The position numbers and the translations under genes are program-made. 64,000 nucleotides of DNA, taken from positions 868,001 through 932,000 of the forward strand of contig CP089279.1 in NCBI GenBank assembly GCA_023920165.1. The letters run 5' to 3'. This DNA is from Curvularia clavata (Eukaryota). Position 1 is the first letter of the stretch; each line of letters opens with the position of its first letter. This document shows positions 499-25,683 of the stretch, one piece after another. Under the pieces are notes generated by a model, which ran no database searches, had not been told where the DNA came from, and worked only from the letters and a program-made list of their open reading frames with translations.

Positions 499-3400
499 TC
501 ATCTCAGGCCCCAATTAAACCACACCTTTACCTCGTCATCCCTTGAGTCATTCTCTCCGTCTTTCTGCTCCTCATCTTCCTCCTCACCTTCCTCCTCTTC
601 TGCCCATGGTTTGTATCCAGTGTTTCTCGCAGCAAGCCTTTTTGCAACTTCGTTTGCTTCGACCAGACTAACCAGTCGTCTCTTATGACCCTTGCTTTGA
701 CCTTCAGCAAAGTCTTTGCAAACTTGCAATACCTTTTCCGTGCTAGAGCGGCCATCCCCAGCCTCCTGCACGAAGGAACTCGGATCCCTTCCTAGCATAC
801 CCTTGATTTGATAATACATGTAAACTGATATACCATGTCTCATCCGATCTCTATACCGTCCATCGGTTGAAAGGGATGGCGGGTTGCTGAAGATCTCTTT
901 TGAGAGATACGAGTCTTCTGCAATCTCAAATGGGGTACGTCCTGATGCATTCTCGTAGAAAAGGATTTCAGGGCGATAGCTGAGCATGGTTCGCAGCAAG
1001 GTATCGGCGCCGTACCTTACAACGGCATGGATGGGCGTGTCCCCATCACCATTGATAATTCCGAGGTCTTCACCTTTGCTGAACTCAAGTAACAGCTGTA
1101 CCACTGTCTCTCCGTATTTTTTATCAGGGCGTCGTTCCCACTCCTTCACATTACCATGGATCCAACATGCAAGCGGCGTAGCTGCGTTCTGGGTCCTCTC
1201 GAAGAATAAGCTGGGAAGAAGACGAGCATCGATCAAGCCTAACAGCTCACGTAGAATTCCGGGAGTACTCTCGGTAGTGTTGTAACCATCCAACATAGAG
1301 TGTATGATGTTGTTCCCGTCGTTATTTCGTGTCGTCTGATCAGCCCCAACTTCTAGGAGAATCTTGACCATTTCAACCCGGTGAAGAGCAAATGCGATAT
1401 GCAGTGGCGTCATACCACTCGTAGAGCGCTTTTCAAGCGCTTCGGGGTAATTTCTGCACAAATTTCGGAGCATCAACAAGGATTCTTCGCTCTTTGCGCC
1501 CATCACCACGCAATGAAGCAGCAAGTGAGAATGCAAGTCAAGCCATTTAGTAATGGATGCCTCAACACCGCCCTTTGCCTTTGCTAGATTCTGAATTCGA
1601 ACGTCGTCGCGGTGAGTATCCGCAAATTGCAAATAACAACGAAGAGGCGCATCCCCCAAGAACCATTCAACACTCTGCAAGCTTCCGGAGTAAGCAGCCC
1701 ACAGCAAGGGTGGATGTCGCATGTCGGGAACTCTGTGCCCAGCTCCTCTCGCAGCATTTGCCCAGTCGGCTCGCTTCTTCCCGTGGACAGAGAGTCCTTG
1801 ATAGTACGCGGGCTTCATGGGTATCTCAATACCACTCTGCTCAACAAGATCGTTCAATGGAAAGCCTGCTCCAGTTCGCTGTATAATCTTTTCAAGCAGC
1901 TGAACTCGTCCAAGACGAAGGGCATAGAGGAAGTCGGCCTCAGGAAAATCGAAGACCTTCGGACTGGCTTCGTTGGAAGTCCAAGGGGTGGGATGGGCAT
2001 ACTCTTCGCACCGTTCAACCAGGAACTCGAACAAATTGGAGTCGTTCGAGTAGATGGCAAACTGAACAAGATTTCGGGGTTTGATGACCTTATTCTGCTC
2101 CTTGTGCTCGCTGCCGGAGAGCTCCAGAGACGTGTCATAATTCGTCATGAACTCTAACGTAGGACAATCTGATTGGATCATTTGCAATGGCGTTGTTGTG
2201 CTTTGGACTTGTGCTTGTACTTCGCCAATATTTTCGATGGTGAAGCGCTCATCCACAATCTCACGATAGATCTGTATTTCATCTTGGCCATCGCAGGTGC
2301 TGTTGTCGTCCTCGTCTGCCTGCTGGATGGCGTGTCTAACCATTGATGTATCTTCTGGAGCATGTTGCGCGTGTGCAATCTCTAGAATGGCTCTGGCGAT
2401 GCTATAATGCTTGCGCAGCACAGCGATAGACAACGGTGATAAACCGTCTGAATTCAATGCCGAAATCTTAAGGGGAGTCTGTTTATTACCCCAGATGCTC
2501 AATGTCAGTTCCTTGATTGTTGAGAGATTGCCTTCCCAACATGCTTCAAAGAGCTTGACGTAGGCTTCCTTTCGTTCATTCGTCAGGTCCGGGAGCGCGA
2601 AGGTGAGATTTGGCTTCCATGGCTTTGGGGGCTCTTCATGGAACGGGTAAGGGTGATTTCCTGGTCCTTGTCCGTTGTTGACATCAGAACGAACTTCCTT
2701 CAAAGTCTTCGCACCACGCTCAACTAGATAACACTCGAGTGCTTCGAACTCCTTGAGCAGAGACTCAGCAGCTGCTTTCTTTTCTGAAGTGCCCTTTGGT
2801 TCTTTCTGTGACTCTAACCACCTTTCATAACTCTTCAACTCACTCTGGTAGGTCTCCTTGGCTTTTTTGAGCTGAGTACTCACCATGAAATGAGCGTAAG
2901 TGCCTGGTTCAAGGTCTCGAAGATAATGGTTGTCGTCCTGTAGTGGAATTGGCGGGGAGCACTTGTAGTTGTAAGCAGTCTCGATCCAACCAGTGCTTCC
3001 CATGCAGCCACCCGCGCCTTCCACTTTCCCAATTGTCGTGAACGTTTGCAGGTCCCGTATTTTGTTGCGAACAACATCCAGCAAAGTACCTATATCCTTT
3101 CTGCCGCTTCCAGGATAACGAATCACTTGCCATGTATCTTTAGAAAGACTGTTAATATCCGCGCCGGCATCCACGAGCCTTCTGACCGCTGAAGGCATAT
3201 CGGAAAATACGCCAGAAAACACAGGCTGCTCAAACTGTTGCTTGAAGACCCACTGATTATGTTCGGTATCGCCACTCATATTTCTGTGGTGTTTAGCGGA
3301 CGCTATATAAGTGTCAAAATCGACCTCGGGTTTGACTCCGAGCTCTAGCAGCGCGTCCACCACTTCAAGGTCCCCATTTTGGATAGCCATGTGCAAGGCG

Positions 3401-5853
3401 CTCTTGCCATCGCCAGAATACGAATTAGGGGATATGGAAATGTGGTTCGCGGCTCGTTCTGACCCAGACTGATTTGATGATATCATGGTCCTCAATAGGT
3501 CCGCTCCGTGAGCAGCAAAGTAACTCAATGCAGTCGTAGAATGGACATCTCCTTGAGCAGGTGAGGCACCAGAACCGATCAGTACTTGGGTCATCTCCTT
3601 GGCCTTCGCAGGTGGGAGATGTAGCGCGAGGACTAACGGTAGGATTGAAGCCCGTGGGGATGTCGAGCCATCATTAACAAGTTTGACGGGCAGCAGAACA
3701 TCAGCACCAAAATCTTGAATGAGTAGTTTCACCATAGGCACGTGACCATTCGCAATGGCAAGATGCAATGCAGTCACCGGAGTATCCCAGGCCAATACGT
3801 TAATGTCGTAGATGTCGGGTTCGTCATCTGACTCTTCGGGAAGTACTTCGTGACTCTGCGTTTCCTGGTGGGTGATCTTGATGAAAGAGCCTTCCGTTCT
3901 TGCATCTTCGTTCTCGTCCTCAGACTCAAAATCAGAGCGATCAATGTCATCCAGATCCTCGCTTTCTTCTGAGTTTTCAGAGTCTACATCGCCGCTGTGT
4001 TCCATGGGGTCGCGCTGTTTCTTCTTCTGAGCCTCCTTCTCTGCCTCTTTCTCTTCGTTGGCTTCACTCTTGATAAGAAGTGCCCTAGCCATCTCTGTTT
4101 CACCGCGCATAGCTGCGAGATGAAGGGCAGTTTTGCCATCATAGAGGCGCGACACAAGACGAGCACCTGCATCGATAAGTGCTTGTACGATTTCTGGTGT
4201 GGATGTTGTAACTGCCAGATGAAGTGGAGTGCGGCCAGTGTAGTCTCTCCGGTTGGGATCAGCACCCTCTTGACTCAGCCAGTCCTGAACATGCTCAAGA
4301 TCCTTGTCGACAATTGCACGACATAGTCTTGCGGTATTACCGACATAGGCCATCTCGGTCCAGTCATCATCTGTGAGGGGATGGAATGAGCCAATAGCCT
4401 GGCGTCCCGGGTCATCTTTGATGAAGGACAGAGGGCCAGAGACGTAAACTTTGCTTTCTTCAGCTGCAATTTCTTTATCTTCAGGAGTTGCTGGCTTGGG
4501 ACAATAACCACAGCAATCTTCGATAACGTCGGTGGCATTTCCGAAGAATGCGGGATGGCGATGCAGGTTGGTCTCGCGGTCCTTTGGTCGGTTCCATTCA
4601 GCATTGAGCAGCAAATCTTTCGCGTACAGCAACTTCTCAATCTTTCGTGCATGGTACTTTGGTCCATATGGAATGGTAAAAGTATGATAGTTACTGACTT
4701 CGTCAGTCTCAACCCATTCTGCCACATCTTCCTCATGCTCGTCTTTCATATTGCCCCATTGCTTCCCTACAAATCGCCGGTTTAACATGGGCCTGCCCCG
4801 CTCAGCGCGACGCTGATCAATGTAATCCTGTCTTTCATGGTTCTCCGGCAGTCTCTCGAGTACTAGCAGCCGAGCAAGGCCGAGTGTCTTCCCGAATGAG
4901 CGCTCGAACAGCGTTGGGTCGATACGAGAACGGTCGAGAAGCGGCCAGTATACTTCGAATCCTCTGCGCGCGTACTTGGAAAGACGATTTTCATATGAAG
5001 GAGAGCGGCGAGTCAAATCAATTGTATTGATTTGAGTCATGAAGGCAGCCAAGGCACGTGGGCTAGCATAGACTTGCTTTCCGTCGTAGGCAACACAAGA
5101 GCAGTCTACATCAAACCCTGTAAGGATTTCAGAGATGGATCGGTAGATGCGCAGAACGATCTGGACGTGGCGAGTTGGATATTGAGAAGCGATAGTTATA
5201 GCATTCTTAGTCCGAATCGTGGTGGTCTCAGTTAAAATCGAGTCCTTGATGCGCTTTTCAATTTGCTTGATCTTCTCCACAGCTTCCTCCTCGGTGAGAC
5301 CGTACAGAAACAAATCAACATCCGAAGCAGGAGCCAGGTGTTGATGGTAATACTCTCGAAGTGCTCTTTTGGAAGCTTTGTGTTCCTCAGAGACAGGCAA
5401 CAAGGATGTCACTACAGCACTGCCTGCAGCCACAACATTGGACCAGTCCAAGTCGGCGAGAGAGGACTCAGAAAACAACTGGAAGTTCTTCTCAAACTCT
5501 TTCAGTGACGTTACAACAGCCGGGCTTGCGCTAGGCTTGCGTTCGTCTTTGCTAAGGGGCATGATGTAGTGTTGACGCTCAGCTTCGGGTTCCTTGGCGG
5601 GGTTGCGAGCACGAATTGTGAGCTCGTGCTCACGTCCTGCATAAACAGGAACGATATTAGGAATATCTATTGCTGGATGGTCGGGTTGTTGAGCGAAGAT
5701 CTGGCGTAGTGTGGCATCGTACTCTTTGTACGGAGCCATTAAATCGGATAGTGGTCCATCTGGGTGGCTAGCAACATGTGCGATCCAGTCGACGTGTTTG
5801 GCTGGAAGTGGAGGGAGCTCCATTGGTGTTGATATCTGCTGTTGTTCCGTCAT
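499..5853 (-). CDS. 1784-aa protein: N-terminal nucleotidyltransferase-like (CCA/poly(A) polymerase head-like) domain followed by multiple ankyrin-repeat clusters
   Basis: Single uninterrupted ORF. Ankyrin motifs include TGRTPLHLAV, GKTALHLAA, TALHLAIANGH, GKSALHMAIQNGD, DGLSPLSIAV, GMTPLHIAF and GDTPIHAVV. N-terminal motifs are VAAGSAV (aa 141-147), SDVDLF (177-182), GFDVDC (246-251) and RLSKYARRGF (290-299). Confidence 0.85.
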   Translation of the reverse strand: MTEQQQISTPMELPPLPAKHVDWIAHVASHPDGPLSDLMAPYKEYDATLRQIFAQQPDHPAIDIPNIVPVYAGREHELTIRARNPAKEPEAERQHYIMPLSKDERKPSASPAVVTSLKEFEKNFQLFSESSLADLDWSNVVAAGSAVVTSLLPVSEEHKASKRALREYYHQHLAPASDVDLFLYGLTEEEAVEKIKQIEKRIKDSILTETTTIRTKNAITIASQYPTRHVQIVLRIYRSISEILTGFDVDCSCVAYDGKQVYASPRALAAFMTQINTIDLTRRSPSYENRLSKYARRGFEVYWPLLDRSRIDPTLFERSFGKTLGLARLLVLERLPENHERQDYIDQRRAERGRPMLNRRFVGKQWGNMKDEHEEDVAEWVETDEVSNYHTFTIPYGPKYHARKIEKLLYAKDLLLNAEWNRPKDRETNLHRHPAFFGNATDVIEDCCGYCPKPATPEDKEIAAEESKVYVSGPLSFIKDDPGRQAIGSFHPLTDDDWTEMAYVGNTARLCRAIVDKDLEHVQDWLSQEGADPNRRDYTGRTPLHLAVTTSTPEIVQALIDAGARLVSRLYDGKTALHLAAMRGETEMARALLIKSEANEEKEAEKEAQKKKQRDPMEHSGDVDSENSEESEDLDDIDRSDFESEDENEDARTEGSFIKITHQETQSHEVLPEESDDEPDIYDINVLAWDTPVTALHLAIANGHVPMVKLLIQDFGADVLLPVKLVNDGSTSPRASILPLVLALHLPPAKAKEMTQVLIGSGASPAQGDVHSTTALSYFAAHGADLLRTMISSNQSGSERAANHISISPNSYSGDGKSALHMAIQNGDLEVVDALLELGVKPEVDFDTYIASAKHHRNMSGDTEHNQWVFKQQFEQPVFSGVFSDMPSAVRRLVDAGADINSLSKDTWQVIRYPGSGRKDIGTLLDVVRNKIRDLQTFTTIGKVEGAGGCMGSTGWIETAYNYKCSPPIPLQDDNHYLRDLEPGTYAHFMVSTQLKKAKETYQSELKSYERWLESQKEPKGTSEKKAAAESLLKEFEALECYLVERGAKTLKEVRSDVNNGQGPGNHPYPFHEEPPKPWKPNLTFALPDLTNERKEAYVKLFEACWEGNLSTIKELTLSIWGNKQTPLKISALNSDGLSPLSIAVLRKHYSIARAILEIAHAQHAPEDTSMVRHAIQQADEDDNSTCDGQDEIQIYREIVDERFTIENIGEVQAQVQSTTTPLQMIQSDCPTLEFMTNYDTSLELSGSEHKEQNKVIKPRNLVQFAIYSNDSNLFEFLVERCEEYAHPTPWTSNEASPKVFDFPEADFLYALRLGRVQLLEKIIQRTGAGFPLNDLVEQSGIEIPMKPAYYQGLSVHGKKRADWANAARGAGHRVPDMRHPPLLWAAYSGSLQSVEWFLGDAPLRCYLQFADTHRDDVRIQNLAKAKGGVEASITKWLDLHSHLLLHCVVMGAKSEESLLMLRNLCRNYPEALEKRSTSGMTPLHIAFALHRVEMVKILLEVGADQTTRNNDGNNIIHSMLDGYNTTESTPGILRELLGLIDARLLPSLFFERTQNAATPLACWIHGNVKEWERRPDKKYGETVVQLLLEFSKGEDLGIINGDGDTPIHAVVRYGADTLLRTMLSYRPEILFYENASGRTPFEIAEDSYLSKEIFSNPPSLSTDGRYRDRMRHGISVYMYYQIKGMLGRDPSSFVQEAGDGRSSTEKVLQVCKDFAEGQSKGHKRRLVSLVEANEVAKRLAARNTGYKPWAEEEEGEEEDEEQKDGENDSRDDEVKVWFNWGLR

Positions 5854-8800
5854 GGTCAGAGTAAGAGGTTCTGCGAAAACAACGGCAATGTCATGAAATG
5901 AGTAGTTTGGACAATGTAATGGGAGAAAGTAGAGAGACTGGAGCGTTGGGATTTAAGTACTCGAATTGATCTATTTTAGAGCGCTGTCCACCGCTCGGTG
6001 GTAGCCTTTCGTTACGAAGAAGGTGATGCAAAAGAGAGACGAGCCGTTGGGAAAGAGGGGCTGTCAGGCAACGCTACCAATCCGAGGGGCAGGAGGCGCG
6101 TTGAAGCCTGGTTGAGCAGGCAGCAACCAATCATTGGAGAGGCTAAGCATTCGCCCCATCACGCTTGCCGCGCGATCTCACGTGACTAACCACGCGCCCG
6201 CCCCTTTGATCGAAGACCCGCCTACATACTCCTCTGACACTGTTCTCGCCGCACTCGTGTATCTCGAATGGCTGTACTGTGTGCCGTGGCACACATTACA
6301 TTTTCGCACATGTGCAGGCACACACACGCAAGCAGTTGCCGCACTCTTCGATTGATCGTTTCACGGTTTCCAACCCATCAAGATGTCTGCGGAGCCGCAG
6401 GGACAGAACAAAGGCGTATATCAGGGGGGTAGCCATGAAGAAATACCATCCTTCAAAATGCCTCATGGCCTAGACCATATTACCTTTCCGCGAGAACAGG
6501 AAAATGCTGCTGAGAGAAGACCATACGTTAGGCCTCCCTATACTTTAATTACGGCCAAGAGTAATTCGCAGTACTATCGCCATTCGGAGTGCAGCCTACG
6601 ATATTATTAATGAACATTACGCATAGCATTCCGTATAGGCATAGTACCATTTACGATCGTTTACATGAGTGTGCCAATGGTATACACAAATGGCTTCTAT
6701 TCGATAATTTCTTCTCCTTACCCCAGTACCAGATAGATATGAATGTCCACCTGCATTAGTTCGACCGCATACCCCTGGTCCTTTGATAAAACCTAGGCAA
6801 TTCTGTGGCTGTTGGTATCCTTTGTTAAATGGCAAAAAGATACTTTTGCATATACCCATTTGCCGATTCTTTTGACGACGACTGGCAAGACTAACAAGGG
6901 TAGAATCACTGCGATTGTGAGACGCATATCAACAGATGCGATTTTGGGATTTGCCAGTGAAGTTTAGAAATCGTTTTTGGTATAGGAGCGGGGAGTAGGC
7001 GCCTGGTTTATACAGTACAGTCGACTAGCGTGACGTGCAATAAGCACCATTTTCAACTTTGATTGAACCCGGGCTTGGCTAGATGTAAGCGGCTCTTATT
7101 CAATGTCGTTTCTCAAGGTTTACTATATTAAAAAAAATGTAAGCGAATGGTACTCAACTTGCAGCCCAGATAGCTCGAAGCTAGTCAGATCCAATAGAAA
7201 GAAACTACTCCCTTGTGGAATGTCTTTAGACGTGAGGAGATGAGGTCCAAAATAGCAGATATATTTGTTAATGTGCATTCACATGCATTTTTAATGATTT
7301 CTAGAGAAGGCCAAACCTCACTGCTTTCACAGAAAGCCAACGATATATTCATCCATACACTGTATCCTTTGCCCATTGTGAACCGGCTCCTTCTCTGAAC
7401 AGCAACATTCTTACGAGATACTCGTATTCAAAATAGCATTCCATGCAAAGTCGCCTTGCCAGCGTACTCAGTATCCCGAACTTGGGTCATTGAAATTCAA
7501 ATTTGAAGCTGTAGTCCCACATTTTGGTAGAGCTCGTTTTGCACATGCGCTTGTTCATTTCTGTTTCTCTCAAACTGACATGTCTGCTCTCAGAAGATCC
7601 ACATCATTCTGATGGTGTCATATGATCTTCACGTGTAAATTGCACAATCTTCTTGATATGAGTGAACAGCGAACGCATGAAACTCTTGTGCCCGATATTT
7701 TGACAGCCATTGTGCTATGCATAGACGCAATATTGCGGAGCCCAAAAAAGAGTCCCGAAAAAGGTCTCCTGGTAAATCTATATAGATATGTCAAAGTGGT
7801 ATGCTTGGTGGAAAGACCCTACTCTTTGGATATACAAATCAGAGATAGCAGTATGTTGTAGTAGCAAGCAACCAGACGATGATTGTATGGAAACTCTTCT
7901 TAAAGTATAGTCATTTTCTCCACCAAAATTACAATATTGATAAGATTCCGGCATTACATTCGTCGACTTGATCGCGTATCGCCCCTTCGTTGTTTTGAGG
8001 CTGATCATATAATGTGCTCATATTATACAGATGAGATATTAGAAAAGTTCCTTTACTGTGATAAATCATCAGTCATCACAATACTCGCTTGTTGTCGCGC
8101 GCCTGGAACACCGTTAGTAGGAGCTCTTTTCCCTACACATCTCCGTCACAGAATATAAGAAATACTAATAGCCCGAAGCCACACTCTAAACAATGCTGAG
8201 CCACTCTGGTTTAACAGGTAGAGCACGAACAACAGGCACATCACAGGAAGCAAGTCGTTCAACGATCGAAAAAGCAACCCCTAGACAGTCCCTCCAGCGA
8301 TCCGTAGACCTACATACACTACGCCTACTAAAAAACAAGCCCAGCCACCCTACCAAAGCATCGAGGGACAACCAGGCCTACGCCACTGCCCCTCTATATC
8401 CAGAAATAAAGCGGCAAATTAACAGCCACTCCTGCTTCTAGACCAAACAATCAGACCACATCACCAGTCGTCTCGCCCTACTCCCCCAAGTTCTAGAACA
8501 CGACCTACTCCTCCATACATTCCTATCCCCACAAAAAAGGCCTCTTAGTGTACCGCATAGCACTGGCGCCGAGATCGCAAACGCCAACAATCCCATACGG
8601 TGTACAGACCTACGTCTGTAAACCAAGCCGGCAAAAACTTCCGAACCCAACCCGGAACTTGGTCTCAATCAACCCCTGGACCATTGGTACCTTGCATTAG
8701 CCTACCAAACAAACCGCCAACAACCCAGGCACCATTCTCTCGCCAAAAACGTACGCCGCACCGTGCGTGCACATGGCATAACGTTCTATGACGCCATTTC

Positions 8801-15144: not shown

Positions 15145-16172
15145 GCCTTCTATTGGTTTTCTTTCCCGTCTTTGTGTTTTACCAGCGTGTGCGTTTGGGG
15201 GTGGGCACTTGTCGTATACACTAACCAGGATGTTATCGTCAGCTGGTCTGGCTTCAGCTAATGGCGCCTTTTTGCCTGCTTCTTACTTGTCGTTTTTTTA
15301 CACACAAAATACCCTTTTCTAATCATGGGTTTCGCGTTTCGGCTTACTGCGAAATGGCCTGTCGCCATTTTTTCTTTTGTTCTGATTGGGGATCTGGTTT
15401 TTGGCGCTTACTTTGTTCCATGGCTTGGTGTTCTGGAATTCCGCGTATATGATGAATATACACGACACACGACGCATTTCATTCAACAGCAAGGGACGGA
15501 GGAAGAGGCTACGGAATTTGTACATAGCTAGGCCGAGTACACCGCGTAAGCTCGCAGACTGCAACGTAGAGCATATTACAGAGAGGAGAATCAGCGTATA
15601 TTTTAGGCACACAATGCAACCATCTTGTGCGTCCAACTTGGCTAGCATACCGAGGATCTGGGTCGACATCGTGAAGGCATGAGGCACAGCAGGCCTCCCA
15701 CGCCAGCCAGCGAGGAGCCTGCAAGGTCCCGCTCATGCAGAACGCCAATCTGGAGGCGGGGGGCGGGACCACGGTTGGCGATCGGTAGGGAGCAAAGTCG
15801 TGGTTGATTGGCCGCTTTCCGAACCGCTACTTGGTCCTTTGGGGAACTGCAGCTGTGCCGCTAGAATACCAAACACCAACTCGACGTTACTTCTTTGTCG
15901 CATCCCACGACGCTGACGTTGCCGACGCTAGCTGACGCCCGGCTGGCTGACTTTTATCTATTTTGCTTCTTGTAGCACGCCTTTGGCATCCCGCCTGCCC
16001 GCCCTTGAAGCCACGTTGGGATTCCATTGTTCTCGAAAGTTGAAACACCCCGCCACCACTACCGTCCTACCCTACGCGTCCGCGGTCGCCTACCTACATC
16101 CTCCCCCGTCTCTCCTGAACACTGCGACAAGAAAAGAAAAGAGTAATCTTACTAGGCGCATATCCGCGCTCC

Positions 16173-18032
16173 ATGGCCGACTCGGACCCAGGCCTTTGGG
16201 CCCAAATCCTTGGGAGAGCTGCTTACGAGTTCTCGCTGATGCAGCCAATGCTACTCACCTACATCCACCTGATCGCCTCAGCCCTCTTCCCGATATACGC
16301 TGGCGCCCATGCCTCGCTTACGCGCCCCTCGACTGCCGCAAAACCTACAAAGAAAAAGAAGAATACCAGCATCAAGGATGACGACACGGAGGAGGATGAC
16401 GATGAGGAAGACGAGGATGAGCAGCGAATCATGGAGGGTTTGTCCCCCACGGATGCCCTGCTCATGCCCCTCTTTGCAGGGACAGCCCTCGCCTCATTAT
16501 ACTTTCTTCTCAAGTGGATGAAAGATCCCGCCCTCCTCAACAAAATCCTCAATGCCTACTTTGCTATCTTTGGTGTCTTCTCCGTCTCGCGGCTGGTAAC
16601 CGACCTCCTTGACATTGGACACTCCATCATATACCCACGTCGACATGTAGTTGGCCGTGCACTATACCATGTCGACGGCGAGGCAAACAAGGCGACTCCA
16701 GTAGCTGGCGATGTGCAGGGCAAACAGCCGCTTGCAACGCCTCTACCAGGCTTCCTCGCCAGGATTCCGCTGTCTGACAGGGCGAGGAATCTTTTCTGGG
16801 CCGATCGTGCTATGCCGGGCAACAAGTGGGTATTGAAACTCTACATGCATCGCGTCTTTGCTGGCAAGTTCAAGGTTGGACTCCATGGTATTGTTGGCGT
16901 CCTCACTGGCCTTGCGACCGTGGCTTACTTCAACCTTGTTGACAAGCCATGGTATTTGACAAATTTGCTGGGTTTTGGATTTTCATATGGCGCCCTGCAG
17001 CTCATGTCACCTACCACATTCGCCACGGGTAGTCTGATATTGGGTGCTCTCTTCTTCTACGACATTTACTTTGTCTTTTTTACGTAAGTCTCTATACACG
17101 TAATCTTGAGAATATTGCTAACGCCTGCCTCCAGCCCTATGATGGTGACTGTAGCAAAGTCCCTCGACGTTCCGATAAAACTCATGTTCCCACGACCTGC
17201 TGCAGCCAACGACCCCACCTCAGTCCCTTCGCATGCTATGCTTGGCCTGGGCGACGTGGTTCTACCTGGTATCATGATCGGCCTTGCTTTGCGCTTCGAC
17301 CTGTATCTCTTCTATCTCCGTCGCCAAAAGCGTGTACCTGCTGTTGTAGCAGGCGTGCAAGGCGCTATTGAGAAACCAAAGTATTTCTCCCTGGCCGGAC
17401 GATGGAGCGACCACTTCTGGACACACTCGCTTACTGGCCGACCATTGTGGAACGCTGCAAAGACAGAGACCGAAACCGAAGCCCCTTTTACCTTCCCCAA
17501 AACATACTTCAACGCCGGTCTAGTAGGTTATATCCTAGGCTTACTAGCTACCCTTGGTGTCATGATGGTTTGGAACCACGCTCAACCAGCACTACTCTAC
17601 CTCGTTCCAGGTGTGCTCGGCAGCATCTGGCTCACCGCCCTCGTCCGCGGCGAGCTCAATCTCATGTGGAACTACACCGAGGAAATCGAAGACGAAGAAG
17701 AAGAGAAGAAAGACGACACCAAGCCATCAGCAGAGCCCGGCAAAGCTTCTTCAGACTCGACTGTTCCGCTCAAAAGTGAATCTAATGACGACAAGGTATT
17801 GCAAGCAAAACGCGTCGCGGGACATAGATCAGATAAAGAAGTCTTTTCCTTTTCTATAGAGGCGCCGTGGAAGTTGAATAGTAAGGCAGATGATGACAAG
17901 GCAAAGGCGGACAAAGGACAAGATGAGGCGCAGCCTGTTGACGGTGAGAAACCAAAATGGGTCCCCTCGGTTACTACGGCGGTCCAGCAGGTGGATGCTG
18001 AGCCGGCGGGGAAGCGTGTGCGGTTAAAGTAG
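16173..18032 (+). CDS. Signal peptide peptidase (GxGD intramembrane aspartyl protease, family A22B); exons 16173-17083, 17135-18032
   Basis: Catalytic motifs FFYDIYFVF, LGLGDVVLPG and QPALLYLVP are present. The intron GTAAGT(17084)...GCTAAC...CAG(17134) joins FFT|PMMVTVAKSLDVPIKL in frame. Confidence 0.95.
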
Positions 18033-19601: not shown

Positions 19602-20540
19602 TTAGAAATGGACATCTCGAAACACACCCACATGAGCGGTAGAGCCTCCTTCTGTCCGTACATTGCTAATACGCTGATTGATACTCCCTACAACACTCTC
19701 TGGCATTCCCACAAACGCCTTCGAGTCAGCTGAGGTGATGACATTGCTGATATCTTGACCACTCCGTTTAGATAGAACCTGCGAGAAGACCACCCCGCAA
19801 GAAACCTGGTCAGCCTCGAGAAGGCGTGACTGCTCTTGGACCTCCCGGATAGCCAGCGCTCGACCAGCACCATCATCATCCTCGTATTCGGGCTCTATCT
19901 CAAGCTCCTGCATTCTCGTATGAGCTTCCTCTTGCTGTTGTTTGATGGTGTCGAGATGCTCTTGGATCTTTGTCTCGAGTGCTTGTAACTGATTGGTCAC
20001 TTTTTCGTGGTTTGCTTCGAACATCTTTCCAGAACGTAGCTGAACCATCCTATTGTGCGATCAGTATGCATTACCTGGGGTAAGTTTGGTGGATCTTTAC
20101 AATTGTGCGCTTGTAACAGCAAAATGCACAGTCGCCTCACAGTACTGCAACTGCGTTCGGAAAGTACGAATCTTTTCTTTGTTCCAAACACCGACGGAAA
20201 TACGATCCCTAAGAGAAATCTTGGTGGTGCTAGAATGCTTCGTCCATTTTACCAAGTTCTCGTTGAACTTCTTGCAGGCACTGCCACAGCTGTTGACCGC
20301 TTCAGCAACGCCAGCCTTCTTGAGATCCTCCTTGATGGCGACTGAGGTGGCCTCGTCAGAAATGCTGAGTTCCTCGAGTGCAGAAAGCGGGCGCTCTATA
20401 TTGACTAAGCTCGAGCTGACATCTGCGACTACGTCTTGGGCTTCGGCGAGGTTGTCAATGAGATTGCGGAGTTCCAAAATGCTACGCGACGCAACATCGG
20501 TGATACCGATAGCACCCACTGTGATGCTGAATGGATCCAT
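19602..20540 (-). CDS. HeLo-like/SesA-type N-terminal-domain effector (295 aa) with a C-terminal two-repeat HET-s-related amyloid motif; exons 20540-20101, 20049-19602
   Basis: The N-terminus MDPFSITVGAIGITDVA...L..LR...C...C..F...L.KW is typical of fungal STAND N-terminal/HeLo-like domains. A 51-nt intron GTAAAG(20100)...ATAG(20050) joins the two track ORFs in frame. The C-terminus carries pseudo-repeats QDISNVITSADSKAFVG and QRISNVRTEGGSTAHVG. Confidence 0.85.
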
Positions 20541-20963
20541 AGTTTTATCTTAATACTGTCCTGGTAAAGTCTTTACAGAAATTAAATGTGCCTGAAGCGA
20601 TTTGATGTTCGCAAAAGCAGAAGACAGGTGGTTCCTCATGTCTGTAGCCTATATTTTATTATAAGTAGTACTGCTGTATCCCTGAACCGGAGGCTTCTTA
20701 CAAGGCTGAAGCATAGTAGCAAGGCTGAGTCGTGGCTAAATGCTATTCTTACTGGCTGCATAATGGGGGCGAAGAACGGAGAAGCTTATAAGCTCCACCA
20801 ACACTCAGCCCCCTACTCACCAAGCCATGCACTGCGAGGACTTGTTTGCGCGTGATCCCAGCCCTGATTCTCTAAACCTATGAAAACAATACAACAGCAG
20901 GCACATTGTCCTTCTTCGACTGTGGCGCAAAATTGTTGTTCGATATTGTTTCAGCCTGGCCAG
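20541..20963. promoter_or_regulatory. 423-bp divergent intergenic region, probable shared promoter of the effector and the NLR
   Basis: The start codons at 20540 (-) and 20964 (+) are head to head. AT-rich TATA-like tracts lie at about 20650-20665 (tatattttattataag) and about 20785-20792 (cttataag). Confidence 0.55.
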
Positions 20964-23467
20964 ATGGCTGAAGATTGCATACACCATCAGAACATCAGCG
21001 GGGTTTCCGCTCAGAACTATTCACAAGTCTTCGCAGGCTCAGCGCAGAATGTGTACTTTGCCAATCCTCAGTCCTCACAAGGTACATGTCAATAGCGGTA
21101 TCTCATACTTACTCGACCTAACAAACCTGCTTTTTAGAGCCGTCCGGAAAAGCAGTCATCGAGTGTCGCAATGCTCTCTATCTTACCGACCCTCGCATCG
21201 ATCGCGAAAGTCTGATCACTGCAAAAGGTACCAGAGTACCAGGCACATGCGAATGGATCAAGGATGATGCAACCTACCGCGCTTGGCTTACTTGCGGTGG
21301 CAACAACAACAGCAAGAACCACAGTAACTCACGTATGCTGTGGATCTCGGGTGGCCCTGGAAAGGGTAAAACTATGCTGTCTATTTTCTTAACAGAAGAG
21401 CTGGAAAGACACAAAGTGCATACGGAGAACTCAGAGTTGCTGTTCTTCTTCTGCAGTGCCCAGGATGAGAAACGCAATACAGCTACAGCTGTTTTACGCG
21501 GGCTATTGCACCAGATCACCGCGAAGCGTCCGCAACTAATCAAGCATGCGCTACCTTACTTTGAGCCACCTGAACGAGTACCTCAAACGCTTTCGTCACT
21601 AGAAGCCCTCTGGATTATTTTTAGCGCGATGGTCTCAGACATTGAGTTTGGCACGATGTTCTGTGTGCTTGACGGACTTGACGAGTGTGAGGAGACCACA
21701 CGGAGAGCGCTAGTATCGAGACTGGCAGGCCTGTTGAAGGAACCTGTCCCATCGAACAAGAACTGGCTGAAAATAGCAATCATCAGTCGAGATATTCCTG
21801 GTCTCCACAACTGCCCGAGAATACGGCTGGATCCCGATAACGATGAGAGCGTGGCCAGCGACATTGGGCAGTTCGTGTCTGCACGGGTAAAGGAACTCTC
21901 GCAGATCAAAGGGTTCAATGACGACCCGCAGAAGTCTGTGTATGTGCAGAGAGAGCTCCTCACACGTTCCGAGGGGACATTTCTCTGGGTAGGCTTCGCG
22001 ATGGATGAACTGTTACAGAAGCGCACGTGGACAGAAGTCTTGTGCTCACTACAAGAATTACCGAGTGGTCTACCCGCAATTTACAGCCGTATGTTACTCG
22101 GAATCCCAAACGAGCACAGAGATATGAGCCGATTAATCCTGCGTTGGGTAACACTGGCTGTACGCCCACTAGGGCTGGAAGAGCTAGCTGCTGCGGCTTG
22201 TATCCAGTCTTCCTCCTCGTCCCAAGCTATCAAGAGGCAAGCAACCCTTGATGCGATATCCCACTGCGGTCCATTGATCCAGGTACAAGAGGACACGATT
22301 AGTTTCATCCACCAGTCGGCACGAGACTATCTACTGCGAGAAAAGCAAGACGACAGCGAGATCTTAGAAGACTTCCGCATTGAGCCAAAGAAGGCGCACC
22401 TGGAGCTATTGCAAACATGTATCAAGTGTATAAATCAGAGCAGTTTGCAGCGCTCAGCCGATGTCCTGGACTATCCATCGCCTCTCGTGGGCTTTAACTT
22501 CGTACTCACTTCAGTCGATCGTGGTGGGAAGAATATGAAAGCGCCTTCACAGGAGTCTTCGCTATTGGCATATGCAGTATTGCATTGGCCCGAACATGCA
22601 AAGGGCTGTTCAACCCAGGACGTTGCATTGTCTGACATCCTCAAGCCATTTTTCCATGAGAATTCTATAGTCCTAAGGAATTGGTGGATCGCGTACAATC
22701 ACATGAAGCGTACCTTTTGGCCTCCAGATCTACCACTGGTGCACATGCAATGCTACTTGGGGCTGGTGCCATTAGTAGAGGAGGTGGTCGCGTCAGAGAA
22801 GTGGAAGCCGCGATTCTTGAAGCGCATAAATAAAAAAGATGCGTATGGAGACACAGCACTACATCTCGCTGTCAAAGGGGGGAACCGAGACTTGGTACCG
22901 ATATTGATTAATGGCGGAGCCAGAGTGAACGCGAGAGGCTACAAGAATGAAACGCCGCTAAACTTTGCTGCGGAAGCAGGGGATGTAGAAGCGTTGCAAC
23001 TGCTACTTAACAACGGAGCGGACATGAACGTAAAGAAGTACTTCACAATGCTAAGTAGGGCAGCTATCAGAGGCAATGAGGCAATAGTCCGGGTGTTACT
23101 CGATAATGGAGCAGACGTTAACGCAGAAGATAAGGACAATGGGACTGCACTGCTCCACGCAGCGAGAGGAGGGCATGTAGAGGTAGTGCGGTTATTACTC
23201 GATAAGGGGGCAGACGTGAACGCCAAGAACAAAAATCAGCGGACGGCCTTGCACTGTGCAGTTTTGTATTCCTGGATTGATTCGAGAAAGCGGATGGCAG
23301 CGGCGCAGCTACTGATTTCCAGGGGGGTGGACATGAATGCGAGGGATTCCGAGGGTAGGACGGCGTTACAGATAGCAACAGAGCAGGGGTATGAGGAGAT
23401 GGTGCAACTGCTAAAGGAAAATGTACATAAATTGGAAGGGGGATGCATGGATGGAGACAGTAGTTGA
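20964..23467 (+). CDS. Fungal NLR (815 aa): N-terminal amyloid-type motif, NACHT NTPase, six ankyrin repeats; exons 20964-21081, 21138-23467
   Basis: The intron GTACAT(21082)...CCTAAC...TTTTTAG(21137) joins exon 1 to CRNALYLTDPRIDRESLITAKGTRVPGTCEWI, a typical NACHT lead-in. Walker A is GGPGKGKT and Walker B is FCVLDGLDEC; SEGTFLWV and FIHQSARDYL follow, then C-terminal ANK repeats (GDTALHLAV...GRTALQIA). An in-frame ATG at 20880 could extend the N-terminus. Confidence 0.92.
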
Positions 23468-24373
23468 GGTGGAAGAACAGTTTCTCGAAAGACTTGGTCT
23501 TTCTCAAGCCGAATAAATGAGATGTTTCGACTTGCAAAAATCACGTATCTAACCCTACTAGCTGCCAGTGAAAGCTATCATGGATTACTGGATTATACTG
23601 CCTGTATCTAAGCGGGTCGCTACTGGAATGATCTCCCATCTACCTGAAACAAAAAGCGAGTTTCTTGAAGGAGCCTTCCTGTGGATCAGCTCAACTCAAC
23701 GAACCGATTTATTAATACATAGCAAATATGCAAGAATAAACACAAAGCAGACTGAGATCGTGATTAGACTTCTCCTAATTTGGTGCAGCAAATACTGGTA
23801 CAACTCAGATACACATCAACAACACAATATTGTATGTAATAGGGAAAGAAACAATGCTCAACGCGCTATCTAGGTTCCGAAGCATGGCATCCATTCATTC
23901 CGACTCGGAACGCTCTACCCCTCACCCGCGATCGCCGTGAGCCTATCTGCCGCCATAGCCCCTCAGTTATGACGCTTCTAGGTGCCAACTTGAGCGAAAA
24001 GATCCAAGAATGAGGGGGCCCATTTCGCACCAACGGCATGGTGTACGTAGTCCCCCTCGTCGTTGCCAATACATGATCACACACCGACATCTTTGCTTCG
24101 CTGAACATAGATCTTTTTTGGAAGGTATAGCCCATTCTATGTACATGAGAGGCCACTGTCTACCTGCCAAAACAGATTCAGGGTGAACAAGTATATGAAC
24201 AAGGCAGTCTCCTCCATTGCAGAGGTAATCGTCATTCCTACATTCAACATTCGCTTTTGACAATCTTCATACCTAGACCCTAAGTAACCCACATACTTCC
24301 ATCAAAATAATCCTACACCCGAATACCAAACACAATTTCGGCGAGCCCGGGAATCCGAACCAACATCCTGAAC

Positions 24374-25683
24374 ATGTCAAACAATACGATGAAAGCAGTA
24401 CACTATGAGGGCCCGTTCAAAGTCTCCGTCAAGGACGTCGAGGTGCCGAAGATCCAGCATCCAGATGACGTTATCGTCAAGGTCACAACTGCCGCTATAT
24501 GCGGTTCTGACTTGCACATGTACCAGGGCCGTACCGCAGCGGAAGCAGGCCTTGTTTTTGGGCATGAGAACATGGGTATCGTCATTGAGACCGGATCCGG
24601 CGTAACACTCTTGGAGAAGGGTGACCGAATTGTACTACCATTTGTGAGTAATCAGGGAGTTGGTTGCAGGTGGATAGCTGATGTCGAGCTTCCTAGAATG
24701 TTGCAGATGGTAGATGTCGCAACTGTGAAGAAGGCAAGACAGCATTCTGTACCGGGTAAGTCTAGACTCAGCCCAGAGGTAATTTGTTGTTGACTAAGAG
24801 CTACAGCGTCAATCCGGGTTTTGCCGGCGGCGCATACGGATACGTTGCCATGGGCCCGTATCAGGGAGGCCAAGCGCAATACCTTCGGGTGCCCTTCGCT
24901 GATTTCAATGCACTGAAACTGCCAAAAGGTACTGAGCACGAGGCCGACTTCATTCTACTTGCAGATATCTTCCCGACAGGATGGCATGGCCTAGTACTCT
25001 CTGGTTTCCAATCTGGCGAGAGCGTAGCAGTGTTTGGCGCGGGCCCCGTTGGTCTCATGGCAGCATACAGCGGTGTACTACGCGGTGCGAGCAAGGTGTT
25101 CGTCGTGGATACAGTCCCAGAACGTTTACAGGCGGCGGAGAAAATCGGTTGCGTACCCATCGACTTCAAGAAGAGTGACCCTGTTGAGCAGATCATCAAG
25201 CTCAACGGAGGTATGGTCGATCGCGCGGTTGATGCCGTTGGATACCAGGCAGTGGACGCGTCGGGTAGCAAAGAGAAGCCCAACATCGTCCTCGACCAGC
25301 TCATAATGGTCACCCGACCAACGGGCGGGCTCGGTATTCCAGGACTTTATGTGCCAGCAGACCCAGGAGCGCCAGATGAACAGAGCAAGAAGGGCCAGAT
25401 TCTGATCTCATTCGGAAAGCTTTTTGAAAAGGTACGTGAACACGCCAAAGACGTTTCCCAACACTCATCGTCGTAGGGCCTCCACCTCGGAACCGGACAA
25501 TGTAACGTCAAAGCCTACAACAGGTATCTTCGCGACATGATCGTATCGGGCAGAGCGAAGCCGAGTTTCGTTGTATCGCACGAGATAAATATCGAAGATG
25601 CACCAACGGCGTACGAGAAATTTGACAAGAGGATCGAGGGGTATACGAAGGTGTTGATTCACCCGAATGGCGCCTTGAACTAG
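24374..25683 (+). CDS. Zinc-dependent MDR dehydrogenase, glutathione-independent formaldehyde dehydrogenase (FdhA)-like; exons 24374-24643, 24697-24755, 24807-25431, 25477-25683
   Basis: Motifs ICGSDLHMY, FGHENMG, GRCRNC...FC, LADIFPTGW, Rossmann GAGPVG and DAVGY. Three GT-AG introns restore one frame to the TAG at 25681-25683. Confidence 0.92.

Follow-up and report, generated by a model that had tools for sequence, protein, structure and literature searches.

The closest described systems are the HRAM pairs of fungi, in which an effector and an adjacently encoded NLR share a short repeat. The HRAM rule (PMC4518210) calls for G as residue 19 of a repeat and for a hydrophobic residue at each of positions 5, 8, 10, 16 and 18 (T being allowed at 10); two repeats lie in the last 80 residues, separated by a loop of 6–18 residues and followed after r2 by a short tail that is often aromatic. 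Subfamilies are told apart by Q, at position 3 for HRAM2, at 16 for HRAM5 and at 18 for HRAM4, while the r0 motifs of HRAM pairs were reported to be poor in D, E and K and, as an HRAM2 trend, to be nearer to r1 than to r2 (PMC4518210). One pair, HELLF/FNT1, has been proven by experiment; a preprint describes a prion with a beta-solenoid solved by ssNMR, together with relocalisation to the membrane and death of the cell, and also reports no cross-seeding between HET-s and HELLF, members of distinct HRAM families. In the literature searched, models of HRAM2 rest solely on homology with HET-s and HELLF, and an experimental test of any HRAM2 motif, or of the present pair, was not found; a literature search on HeLo-like amyloid proteins in Pleosporales genera yielded only taxonomy and genome papers.

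The locus considered here lies in a 64-kb window (the whole stretch of DNA analysed) and consists of two divergent genes, one for a small HeLo-like effector and one for a NACHT-ankyrin NLR, which very probably form an ordinary, intact fungal NLR/amyloid cell-death module of the HRAM2 class, in a fungus related to Curvularia and Bipolaris (Pleosporales). The layout was as follows.

16119-18032: signal peptide peptidase, flanking, two ORFs (PF04258)
19602-23467: the whole pair, two divergent two-exon genes
19602-20540, minus strand: HeLo-like effector gene (ATG at 20540; product 295 aa)
20540-20101, minus strand: effector exon 1
20100-20050, minus strand: effector intron (51 nt, GT..AG)
20049-19602, minus strand: effector exon 2, stop included
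20541-20963, no strand: intergenic spacer, 423 bp between the two ATGs
20964-23467, plus strand: NACHT-ankyrin NLR gene (ATG at 20964; product 815 aa)
20964-21081, plus strand: NLR exon 1
21082-21137, plus strand: NLR intron (56 nt, GT..AG)
21138-23467, plus strand: NLR exon 2, stop included
24311-25683: zinc-type alcohol dehydrogenase, flanking

An earlier note, made from the raw sequence, had placed a candidate pair at exactly these outer coordinates, and its description of divergent genes 423 bp apart, between a signal peptide peptidase gene and a dehydrogenase, was borne out by the two ATGs (20540 on the minus and 20964 on the plus strand), by the PF04258 ORFs and by the zinc-type dehydrogenase. 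Housekeeping neighbours in the window comprised the signal peptide peptidase, the alcohol dehydrogenase, cyclophilin, zf-C2HC5, CHS5 and GH63. Contigs from public runs approached the spacer from both sides, with effector contigs extending to 20736 and NLR contigs beginning at 20841-20889, and the spacer (20541-20963) probably functions as a shared promoter.

Both introns implied by the earlier note (51 nt and 56 nt, GT..AG) are removed in contigs from three public runs, X1, X3 and X18, each of a different study, the effector joint reading 20048>20100. The library type of these runs is not on record as RNA; the evidence for splicing consists of the joints themselves. In run X19, by contrast, contigs extend unspliced into both introns. 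A 54-nt skip was also noted at 23079-23132. The exon joins of homologues agree. For the NLR the join is identical in annotated homologues (for example P0030, P0031 and P0055), and for the effector the exon ends abut free of gaps in an alignment with 15 full-length homologues (A1). The joining of NLR exon 1 to the NACHT exon, without which the earlier reading would have failed, was observed as the 56-nt joint in the contigs of X1, X3 and X18. Both genes are apparently intact.

The NLR product has the composition of a fungal NLR (STAND NTPase), namely a NACHT domain with both Walker motifs, a winged helix and C-terminal superstructure-forming repeats, distributed along the gene as follows.

21242-21790, plus strand: NACHT/NPHP3_N nucleotide-binding domain (PF24883, E 3.8e-36; PF05729, E 8.1e-09)
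21350-21373, plus strand: Walker A, GGPGKGKT, intact
21659-21685, plus strand: Walker B, FCVLDGLDE, intact
22118-22351, plus strand: winged-helix domain (PF22939, E 8.7e-08)
22838-23431, plus strand: ankyrin-repeat sensor region of about six repeats (Ank families, E 1e-25 to 4e-41)

The N-terminus of the NLR matched no Pfam family at E <= 1, and it is here, at residues 7–27, that the single motif copy attributed by the earlier note to a head-to-head NACHT-ankyrin NLR was located, the remaining domains being assigned by Pfam. An r0 lies within the first 70 residues of at least 15 among the best 120 NLR homologues, and the locus tags of effector and NLR in Pyrenophora tritici-repentis follow one another directly (A1F96_04896 and A1F96_04897).

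Such a module could now serve mainly in allorecognition (heterokaryon incompatibility) or as a prion, like het-s/het-S, instead of in an NLR-triggered response to foreign ligands, or the effector could be served mostly by unlinked NLRs bearing the same r0. Points in this direction are the strain polymorphism of the NLR in runs X1 and X3 (a CAA insertion and ~10 substitutions), the occurrence of HRAM2-like r0 motifs in several NACHT-ankyrin homologues under one species name (Alternaria alternata P0037, P0048, P0054 and P0066) and the discussion, in PMC9815663, of signalling between non-adjacent NLRs and effectors. However, the four Alternaria entries may stem from different strains, the data examined gave no sign of alternative effector alleles or of incompatibility, and the ankyrin repeats are diverged (mean mutual identity of 24% among four anchored repeats), unlike the near-identical type linked to rapid diversification. 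We regard an allorecognition role or a predominantly unlinked partnership as unlikely, and favour an ordinary HRAM2 module of two adjacent genes.

The effector of this HRAM2 pair was identified in the earlier note as a HeLo-like protein with two C-terminal HET-s-related repeats, and both parts were recovered, the repeats at residues 243–263 and 270–290 and the domain as PF17111 on exon 1 (E 6.4e-16; 58.8 bits against a curated Pfam cut-off of 27.2). Its 295 aa and N-terminal HeLo-like domain lie within the limits used for HRAM pairs (<310 aa; HeLo, HeLo-like or SesA). Among the effector homologues, 22 of 22 carry PF17111 and both repeats, with lengths of 278–312 aa and the same type of loop between the repeats. 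The Pfam family HET-s_218-289 (PF11558) had no match to effector exon 2 at E <= 1, a miss that is expected, since in the 2015 study (PMC4518210) the model recognised just 38 of 155 HRAM proteins. A metagenome scan with effector exon 2 returned three loci and gave no independent evidence of linkage; two were too short to reach the NLR side, and the third (L003) is a decayed copy, with frameshifts and without the repeats, and the 4 kb listed on its upstream side contain no NLR-sized ORF.

Pfam now calls PF17111 'PigL_N', and UniRef gives homologues the name 'azaphilone pigments biosynthesis cluster protein L', labels that would make the small protein an accessory of a pigment or secondary-metabolite pathway and leave its resemblance to the NLR without signalling meaning. 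This reading is very improbable and was rejected: no PKS, NRPS or other cluster gene was found among the 15 large ORFs scanned in the window, the repeats are kept in all 22 homologues, adjacent NLRs bear the matching motif, and published work regards PF17111 as the HeLo-like cell-death domain. For the HRAM2 module, the features that connect effector and NLR are the repeats and their surroundings.

19701-19763, minus strand: R1, first 21-residue HRAM2 pseudo-repeat, effector residues 243–263 (effector-repeat profile from other species, E 1.9e-10)
19683-19700, minus strand: loop ESVVGS, 6 residues, between R1 and R2
19620-19682, minus strand: R2, second HRAM2 pseudo-repeat, effector residues 270–290 (effector-repeat profile, E 4.5e-10)
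19605-19619, minus strand: 5-residue tail after R2, aromatic last residue
20982-21044, plus strand: R0, the one HRAM2 motif at the NLR N-terminus, residues 7–27 (r0 profile, E 4.2e-10)
21045-21059, plus strand: 5-residue aromatic tail after R0

Scoring of R0, R1 and R2 against the HRAM rules, which the earlier note had suggested as a check, assigned all three to HRAM2. Each complies at the listed core positions and has G19 and Q3, with A or V at 16 and 18, so that no mark of HRAM5 or HRAM4 is present; the 6-residue loop and the 5-residue aromatic-ended tail likewise agree with the HRAM description, as does a divergent NACHT-ankyrin gene 423 bp away with one uncharged r0 at residues 7–27. Judged by its residues, the motif belongs to HRAM2 as described by Daskalov, Dyrka and Saupe in 2015 (PMC4518210).

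A hand recount reproduced the identities first given for R0 and R1 (7/17) and for R0 and R2 (8/24); in the 21-residue HRAM frame they are 7/21 for R0/R1, 6/21 for R0/R2 and 10/21 for R1/R2. By BLOSUM score R0 is nearer to R1 (23) than to R2 (17), the order of the HRAM2 trend. Charged residues (D, E, K or R) number none in R0 against three each in R1 and R2. Of the outward positions 4, 6, 7, 11, 12 and 13, at which HRAM pairs are described as having complementary charges in r1 and r2, opposite charges occur between R1 and R2 at position 4 only (D in R1, R in R2), the others being uncharged on at least one side. R0 also shares 10 of 21 positions (hand count) with the r0 of a presumed published HRAM2 example pair, whose accession we take to be from Penicillium roqueforti.

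At the level of sequence, the similarity of R0 to R1 and R2 exceeds chance on two tests. Against a BLOSUM62 profile of R1 and R2, R0 scored 40 and ranked first of 60,327 non-self 21-mers in the six frames of the window (next score, 31), a score reached by 28 of 200,000 shuffled versions of R0. A profile built from the r0 of 16 NLR homologues of other species matched R0 at E 4.2e-10, and its next-best match among 1,618 ORFs was effector exon 2 (E 0.022), the matched stretches falling on R1 and R2; the converse profile (44 effector repeats from 22 homologues) missed R0 (E 39, rank 45 of 1,618 ORFs). That the likeness is chance or composition between mere neighbours, as the low pairwise identity (6–7 of 21) and this miss could suggest, is scarcely credible against the first rank, the shuffles, the r0 profile's match exactly on R1 and R2 and the same pairing in at least eight catalogued orthologous loci.

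The orthologous loci are listed in supplementary table 2 of PMC4518210, where effector/NLR pairs from Cochliobolus lunatus, C. sativus, C. carbonum and C. heterostrophus are joined by pairs from Karstenula, Amniculicola, Westerdykella and Capronia (rows Coclu2_33136, Cocsa1_181401, Cocca1_9269, CocheC4_1_195238, Karrh1_425760, Amnli1_517605, Wesor1_504224 and gi_628327468), the r0 of each row being drawn from the adjacent NLR. The HRAM group of these rows was deduced from position 3 together with Table 1 of that paper, which counts a single HRAM2 and a single HRAM3 for each of C. lunata and C. sativus; the orthologue rows of these two species are taken as their HRAM2 entries because in both the remaining row carries H at position 3. 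The earlier note was therefore right to assign the locus to the NLR/amyloid pairs, since motif, domains and adjacency match those of catalogued HRAM pairs, and wrong to see in it a motif variant of its own: HRAM2 was defined in 2015, and close orthologues that share the 6-residue loop and the r0 pattern were tabulated then. Nor is the variant uncatalogued, as had been left possible, orthologous pairs being listed in the same supplementary table.

Structure prediction gave a partial view of the effector tail, in which r1 and r2 would form a two-rung beta-solenoid. An AF2 model of its 66 residues (pLDDT 79.1) placed strands at positions 3–10 and 15–21 of both repeats, and among PDB sequences the family profile matched 6EKA best, over the repeats (E 0.049). 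We take this entry to be HELLF(209-277), as its first residue equals the primer-encoded start in the HELLF preprint. Prediction of a complex between the effector tail (exon 2 residues 85–148) and NLR exon 1, run without alignments, gave no answer, scoring 0.00 twice. By homology with NWD2/HET-S and FNT1/HELLF, the pair would be expected to form amyloid, to signal by templating, to attack membranes and to share the biological role of those systems. A ligand would be bound by the ankyrin repeats of the NLR, upon which the NACHT domain would oligomerise and the N-terminal r0 motifs, thus gathered, would take a HET-s-like cross-beta (beta-solenoid) fold. This fold would template both pseudo-repeats in the C-terminal tail of the HeLo-like protein, the product of a separate gene, and folding of the tail would free the N-terminal helical domain for membrane targeting, leading to cell death.

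One element falls outside the 21-residue frame. A stretch of the form [DN]-V-aromatic-F follows position 21 in r0 and r2, and is absent from R1 and from the Bipolaris-type effectors that end at r2. It might conceivably extend the templating unit to ~26 residues, giving a lineage-specific seeding barrier or an r0-to-r2 polarity within HRAM2, an idea that we offer as doubtful.

The module type, the motif subfamily and the orthologous loci are already known, in print since 2015, and the locus accordingly has little discovery value. What it does offer is a correct call made from raw sequence despite two introns, contigs whose splicing joins the r0 exon to the NACHT exon, with divergent transcription from the 423-bp spacer (the library type not being on record as RNA), and a clean, compact pair (of 295 aa and 815 aa) that might be used in a first experiment on the folding and cross-seeding of HRAM2.

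Compared with known systems, the PP (HELLP/PNT1) and sigma (SesA/SesB/HET-eN) motifs likewise carry amyloid signals from NLRs to effectors of the HeLo-like or SesA type; the PP core NxGxQxGxN is not in R0, R1 or R2 by inspection, and the sigma motif has ~40 residues against 21 here. HET-S/NWD2 of Podospora anserina (HRAM1) follows the same logic, with one r0 on the NLR and r1 and r2 on the adjacent effector, and differs in its HeLo rather than HeLo-like effector domain, in N rather than Q at position 3 and in its Pfam family PF11558, which has no match here. NWD2 has WD repeats in place of ankyrin repeats. HELLF/FNT1 (Podospora anserina, 6EKA) likewise combines a HeLo-like effector with two HRAM repeats and an adjacent one-repeat NLR, but belongs to HRAM5, with the hallmark QxFG, and the similarity of its tail to that of the present effector is marginal (E 0.049). 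The catalogued HRAM2 pairs of Pleosporales and Chaetothyriales resemble the present one in their N-terminal HeLo-like domain, in two 21-residue repeats with Q3, in the length (6 residues) and type of the loop, and in a neighbouring NLR whose single r0 is uncharged. Among them the Bipolaris-type rows (Cocca1, CocheC4 and Cocsa1) end directly after r2, without a tail, whereas the nearest catalogued pair, the Cochliobolus lunatus row Coclu2_33136 (PMC4518210), comes from a different species and differs by several substitutions per repeat, and shares with the present pair the 5-residue aromatic tail after r2.

The interval 19602-23467 consists of two divergent genes with an ATG-to-ATG distance of 423 bp, and the coordinates and counts that an earlier note had assigned to it, as an amyloid-signalling NLR/effector pair, were all correct on recheck. 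The smaller gene encodes a HeLo-like effector of 295 aa once its two ORFs are joined, and the larger a NACHT-ankyrin receptor (NLR) of 815 aa, structured as follows (ORFs and exons by translation):

20540, minus: ATG of the first effector ORF stretch, 147 codons
20100-20050, minus: effector intron, 51 nt (GTAAAG...CTGAT...AG), whose removal joins both ORFs
20048 down to the stop at 19602-19604, minus: second effector ORF
20964, plus: ATG of NLR exon 1, 39 codons
21082-21137, plus: NLR intron, 56 nt (GT...CTAAC...AG), between exon 1 and exon 2
ending at 23467, plus: NLR exon 2, 776 codons

The pair is bordered by genes for a signal peptide peptidase and a zinc-type alcohol dehydrogenase, with a cyclophilin, a C2HC5 zinc-finger protein, CHS5, a GH63 enzyme, and other ordinary genes farther away. 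Elsewhere in the window, a 1,817-codon open frame (499-5952, minus) matched only ankyrin repeats in Pfam at E <= 1e-5, with most of the protein outside any such match.

Both gene models are right on three lines of evidence. Aligned to 15 full-length homologues (296-305 aa), effector exon 1 runs into exon 2 at a gapless junction, and annotated NLR homologues, including those from Bipolaris victoriae (P0030), Pyrenophora seminiperda (P0031), and Periconia macrospinosa (P0055), join the same short motif-bearing segment to the same conserved pre-NACHT segment. Further, contigs from public sequencing runs of three studies (X1, X3, and X18) contain exact skips of 51 nt (20048>20100) and 56 nt (21079>21136), both with GT..AG ends on the coding strand after offset correction. 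The effector-side contig family spans 19478/19533-20569/20736 and the NLR-side family 20841/20889-23081, and the two units therefore end on opposite sides of the spacer. In a fourth run (X19), contigs extend into both introns unspliced. Library type is off record for all four runs, and the most economical interpretation takes X1, X3, and X18 to be assembled transcripts, with both genes expressed and their introns removed as the models predict. The earlier note had allowed that exon 1 might not be spliced to the NACHT exon, a doubt removed by the joint in the X1, X3, and X18 contigs. Numerous database models of NACHT-ankyrin homologues begin within exon 2 or are flagged partial and have therefore lost the short exon carrying the N-terminal motif (r0), such that surveys of predicted proteins probably undercount r0-bearing NLRs.

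In the X1 and X3 contigs, the Asn-rich linker preceding Walker A is longer by one CAA codon, inserted behind 21300, and about ten substitutions at scattered sites (20421-23445) distinguish them from the window; these differences are strain-level polymorphism of the NLR. Short 57-nt contigs of both runs have an in-frame 54-nt skip in the ankyrin region (23079-23132; non-canonical AG..TA ends, three shared letters), alongside a deeper unskipped form; possible sources are unusual splicing, a rare allele, or an artefact arising at a short direct repeat. A decayed effector relative occurs on a metagenome contig (L003, 5446-6270), with frameshifts between its N-terminal pieces, and it breaks off ahead of the amyloid repeats; the 4 kb listed upstream held no NLR-sized ORF, the largest being 378 aa on the other strand.

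Effector exon 1 matches PF17111 (E 6.4e-16; 58.8 bits, cut-off 27.2), now PigL_N in Pfam and Helo_like_N or HeLo-like in the amyloid-signalling literature (PMC9815663). Pfam and UniRef attach ‘pigment cluster’ names to this family, but a role as a pigment-cluster protein is not backed by the 64-kb neighbourhood, where a scan of 15 large ORFs found no cluster genes. Outside exon 1 the effector had no Pfam family above cut-off, and this remainder had no match to the canonical HET-s prion-domain model at E <= 1. The NLR possesses NPHP3_N/NACHT (E 3.8e-36 and 8.1e-09), a winged helix (E 8.7e-08), intact Walker A and Walker B motifs, and about six ankyrin repeats, with a mean identity of only about 24% among four anchored repeats.

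The single r0 motif of this NLR (R0) shares 7/21 residues with the first C-terminal pseudo-repeat of the effector (R1) and 6/21 with the second (R2), while R1 and R2 share 10/21. Chance similarity is disfavoured by motif statistics and by recurrence in orthologous loci. Among 60,327 non-self 21-mers in a six-frame translation of the whole window, R0 scored highest against R1 and R2 together (40; runner-up, 31), a score reached by 28 of 200,000 R0 shuffles. A profile from the r0 motifs of 16 other-species NLR homologues recovered R0 (E 4.2e-10), and its next-best match among 1,618 ORFs was effector exon 2 (E 0.022), in two stretches located on R1 and R2. A profile from 44 effector repeats (22 homologues) recovered R1 and R2 (E about 1e-10) and missed R0 (rank 45 among the 1,618 ORFs, E 39). 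The resemblance is real, if distant, and such distance is usual between r0 and the effector repeats. The five residues after r0 (21045-21059), an element kept in many NLR homologues, resemble the five after r2 (19605-19619; [DN]-V-aromatic-F). Effector tails in other genera are longer, yet their opening residues follow a similar pattern, N-[IV]-x-[LMF], and Bipolaris-type effectors in the 2015 table (PMC4518210) end right at r2.

The HET-s-related amyloid motifs (HRAMs) are described in PMC4518210 as having G at position 19, hydrophobic residues at 5, 8, 10, 16, and 18 (T permitted at 10), frequently R or K at 15, a loop of 6–18 residues, and a short, often aromatic tail after r2. Subfamilies are set apart by N (HRAM1), Q (HRAM2), or H (HRAM3) at position 3, Q at 18 (HRAM4), and Q at 16 (HRAM5) (PMC4518210).

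Residues at the HRAM positions
R1: 3 Q, 5 I, 8 V, 10 T, 15 K, 16 A, 18 V, 19 G
R2: 3 Q, 5 I, 8 V, 10 T, 15 –, 16 A, 18 V, 19 G
R0: 3 Q, 5 I, 8 V, 10 A, 15 –, 16 V, 18 A, 19 G

R1 and R2 are separated by a 6-residue loop. R0 is free of D, E, K, and R (three such residues each in R1 and R2), which fits the charge depletion reported for r0 motifs (PMC4518210), and is closer to R1 than to R2, the trend given there for HRAM2. All three motifs have Q at position 3. By hand count, R0 shares 10/21 positions with the r0 of a supplementary row whose accession we take to be Penicillium roqueforti. That species supplies the HRAM2 example pair in a review's figure legend (PMC5485727).

By homology with NWD2/HET-S and FNT1/HELLF, from which we infer all functional steps, ligand binding by the ankyrin repeats would lead to NACHT oligomerisation, clustered r0 segments would take on a cross-beta fold templating both repeats (r1 and r2) of the HeLo-like protein, and the helical N-terminal domain of the latter would then target the membrane. 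An AF2 model of the 66-residue effector tail (pLDDT 79.1, pTM 0.61) places one strand over positions 3-10 and another over 15-21 in each of R1 and R2, four in all; fold comparisons gave no significant match. The best PDB match of the family profile, over the repeats, was 6EKA (E 0.049), a 78-residue P. anserina chromosome-3 fragment whose start agrees with the HELLF(209-277) construct. For HELLF, a HeLo-like/HRAM5 protein, a preprint describes prion behaviour, fibrils, an ssNMR beta-solenoid, membrane relocalisation, and cell death. The relevant papers among those listed as naming HRAM2 or HRAM-2 were the 2015 definition, a review, a 2022 survey, and the HELLF preprint, which gives HRAM-2 homology models; no experimental test of an HRAM2 motif was found among them.

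The earlier note's proposal that the pair has its own motif variant did not hold, as the motif is HRAM2 and the supplementary table of PMC4518210 has direct orthologues that agree with it in loop type and have near-identical repeats, each row with r0 drawn from the adjacent NLR; the variant was therefore already catalogued, and the window belongs to a relative of Curvularia and Bipolaris. The closest row is Cochliobolus lunatus Coclu2_33136, which also shares the 5-residue tail; the other rows are from C. sativus, C. carbonum, C. heterostrophus, Karstenula rhodostoma, Amniculicola lignicola, Westerdykella ornata, and Capronia epimyces; three of these proteins (P0006, P0007, and P0025) were returned by the homologue search. 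Table 1 of PMC4518210 counts a single HRAM2 and a single HRAM3 for each of C. lunata and C. sativus, and the orthologue rows are the HRAM2 entries because the other row per species has H at position 3. An allorecognition role, or signalling to the effector from further NLRs that are unlinked but bear the same r0, may apply, and would be variation inside the known class. In that class, an adjacent r0-bearing NLR is reported for 98/155 HRAM effectors, each of 25/25 HRAM2 r0 motifs groups with its cognate effector repeats, r1 and r2 (PMC4518210), and neighbouring NLR/effector pairs in the 2022 survey again yield motifs that ‘resembled HRAM2’ (PMC9815663); the locus is a known system correctly recognised, not a new one.
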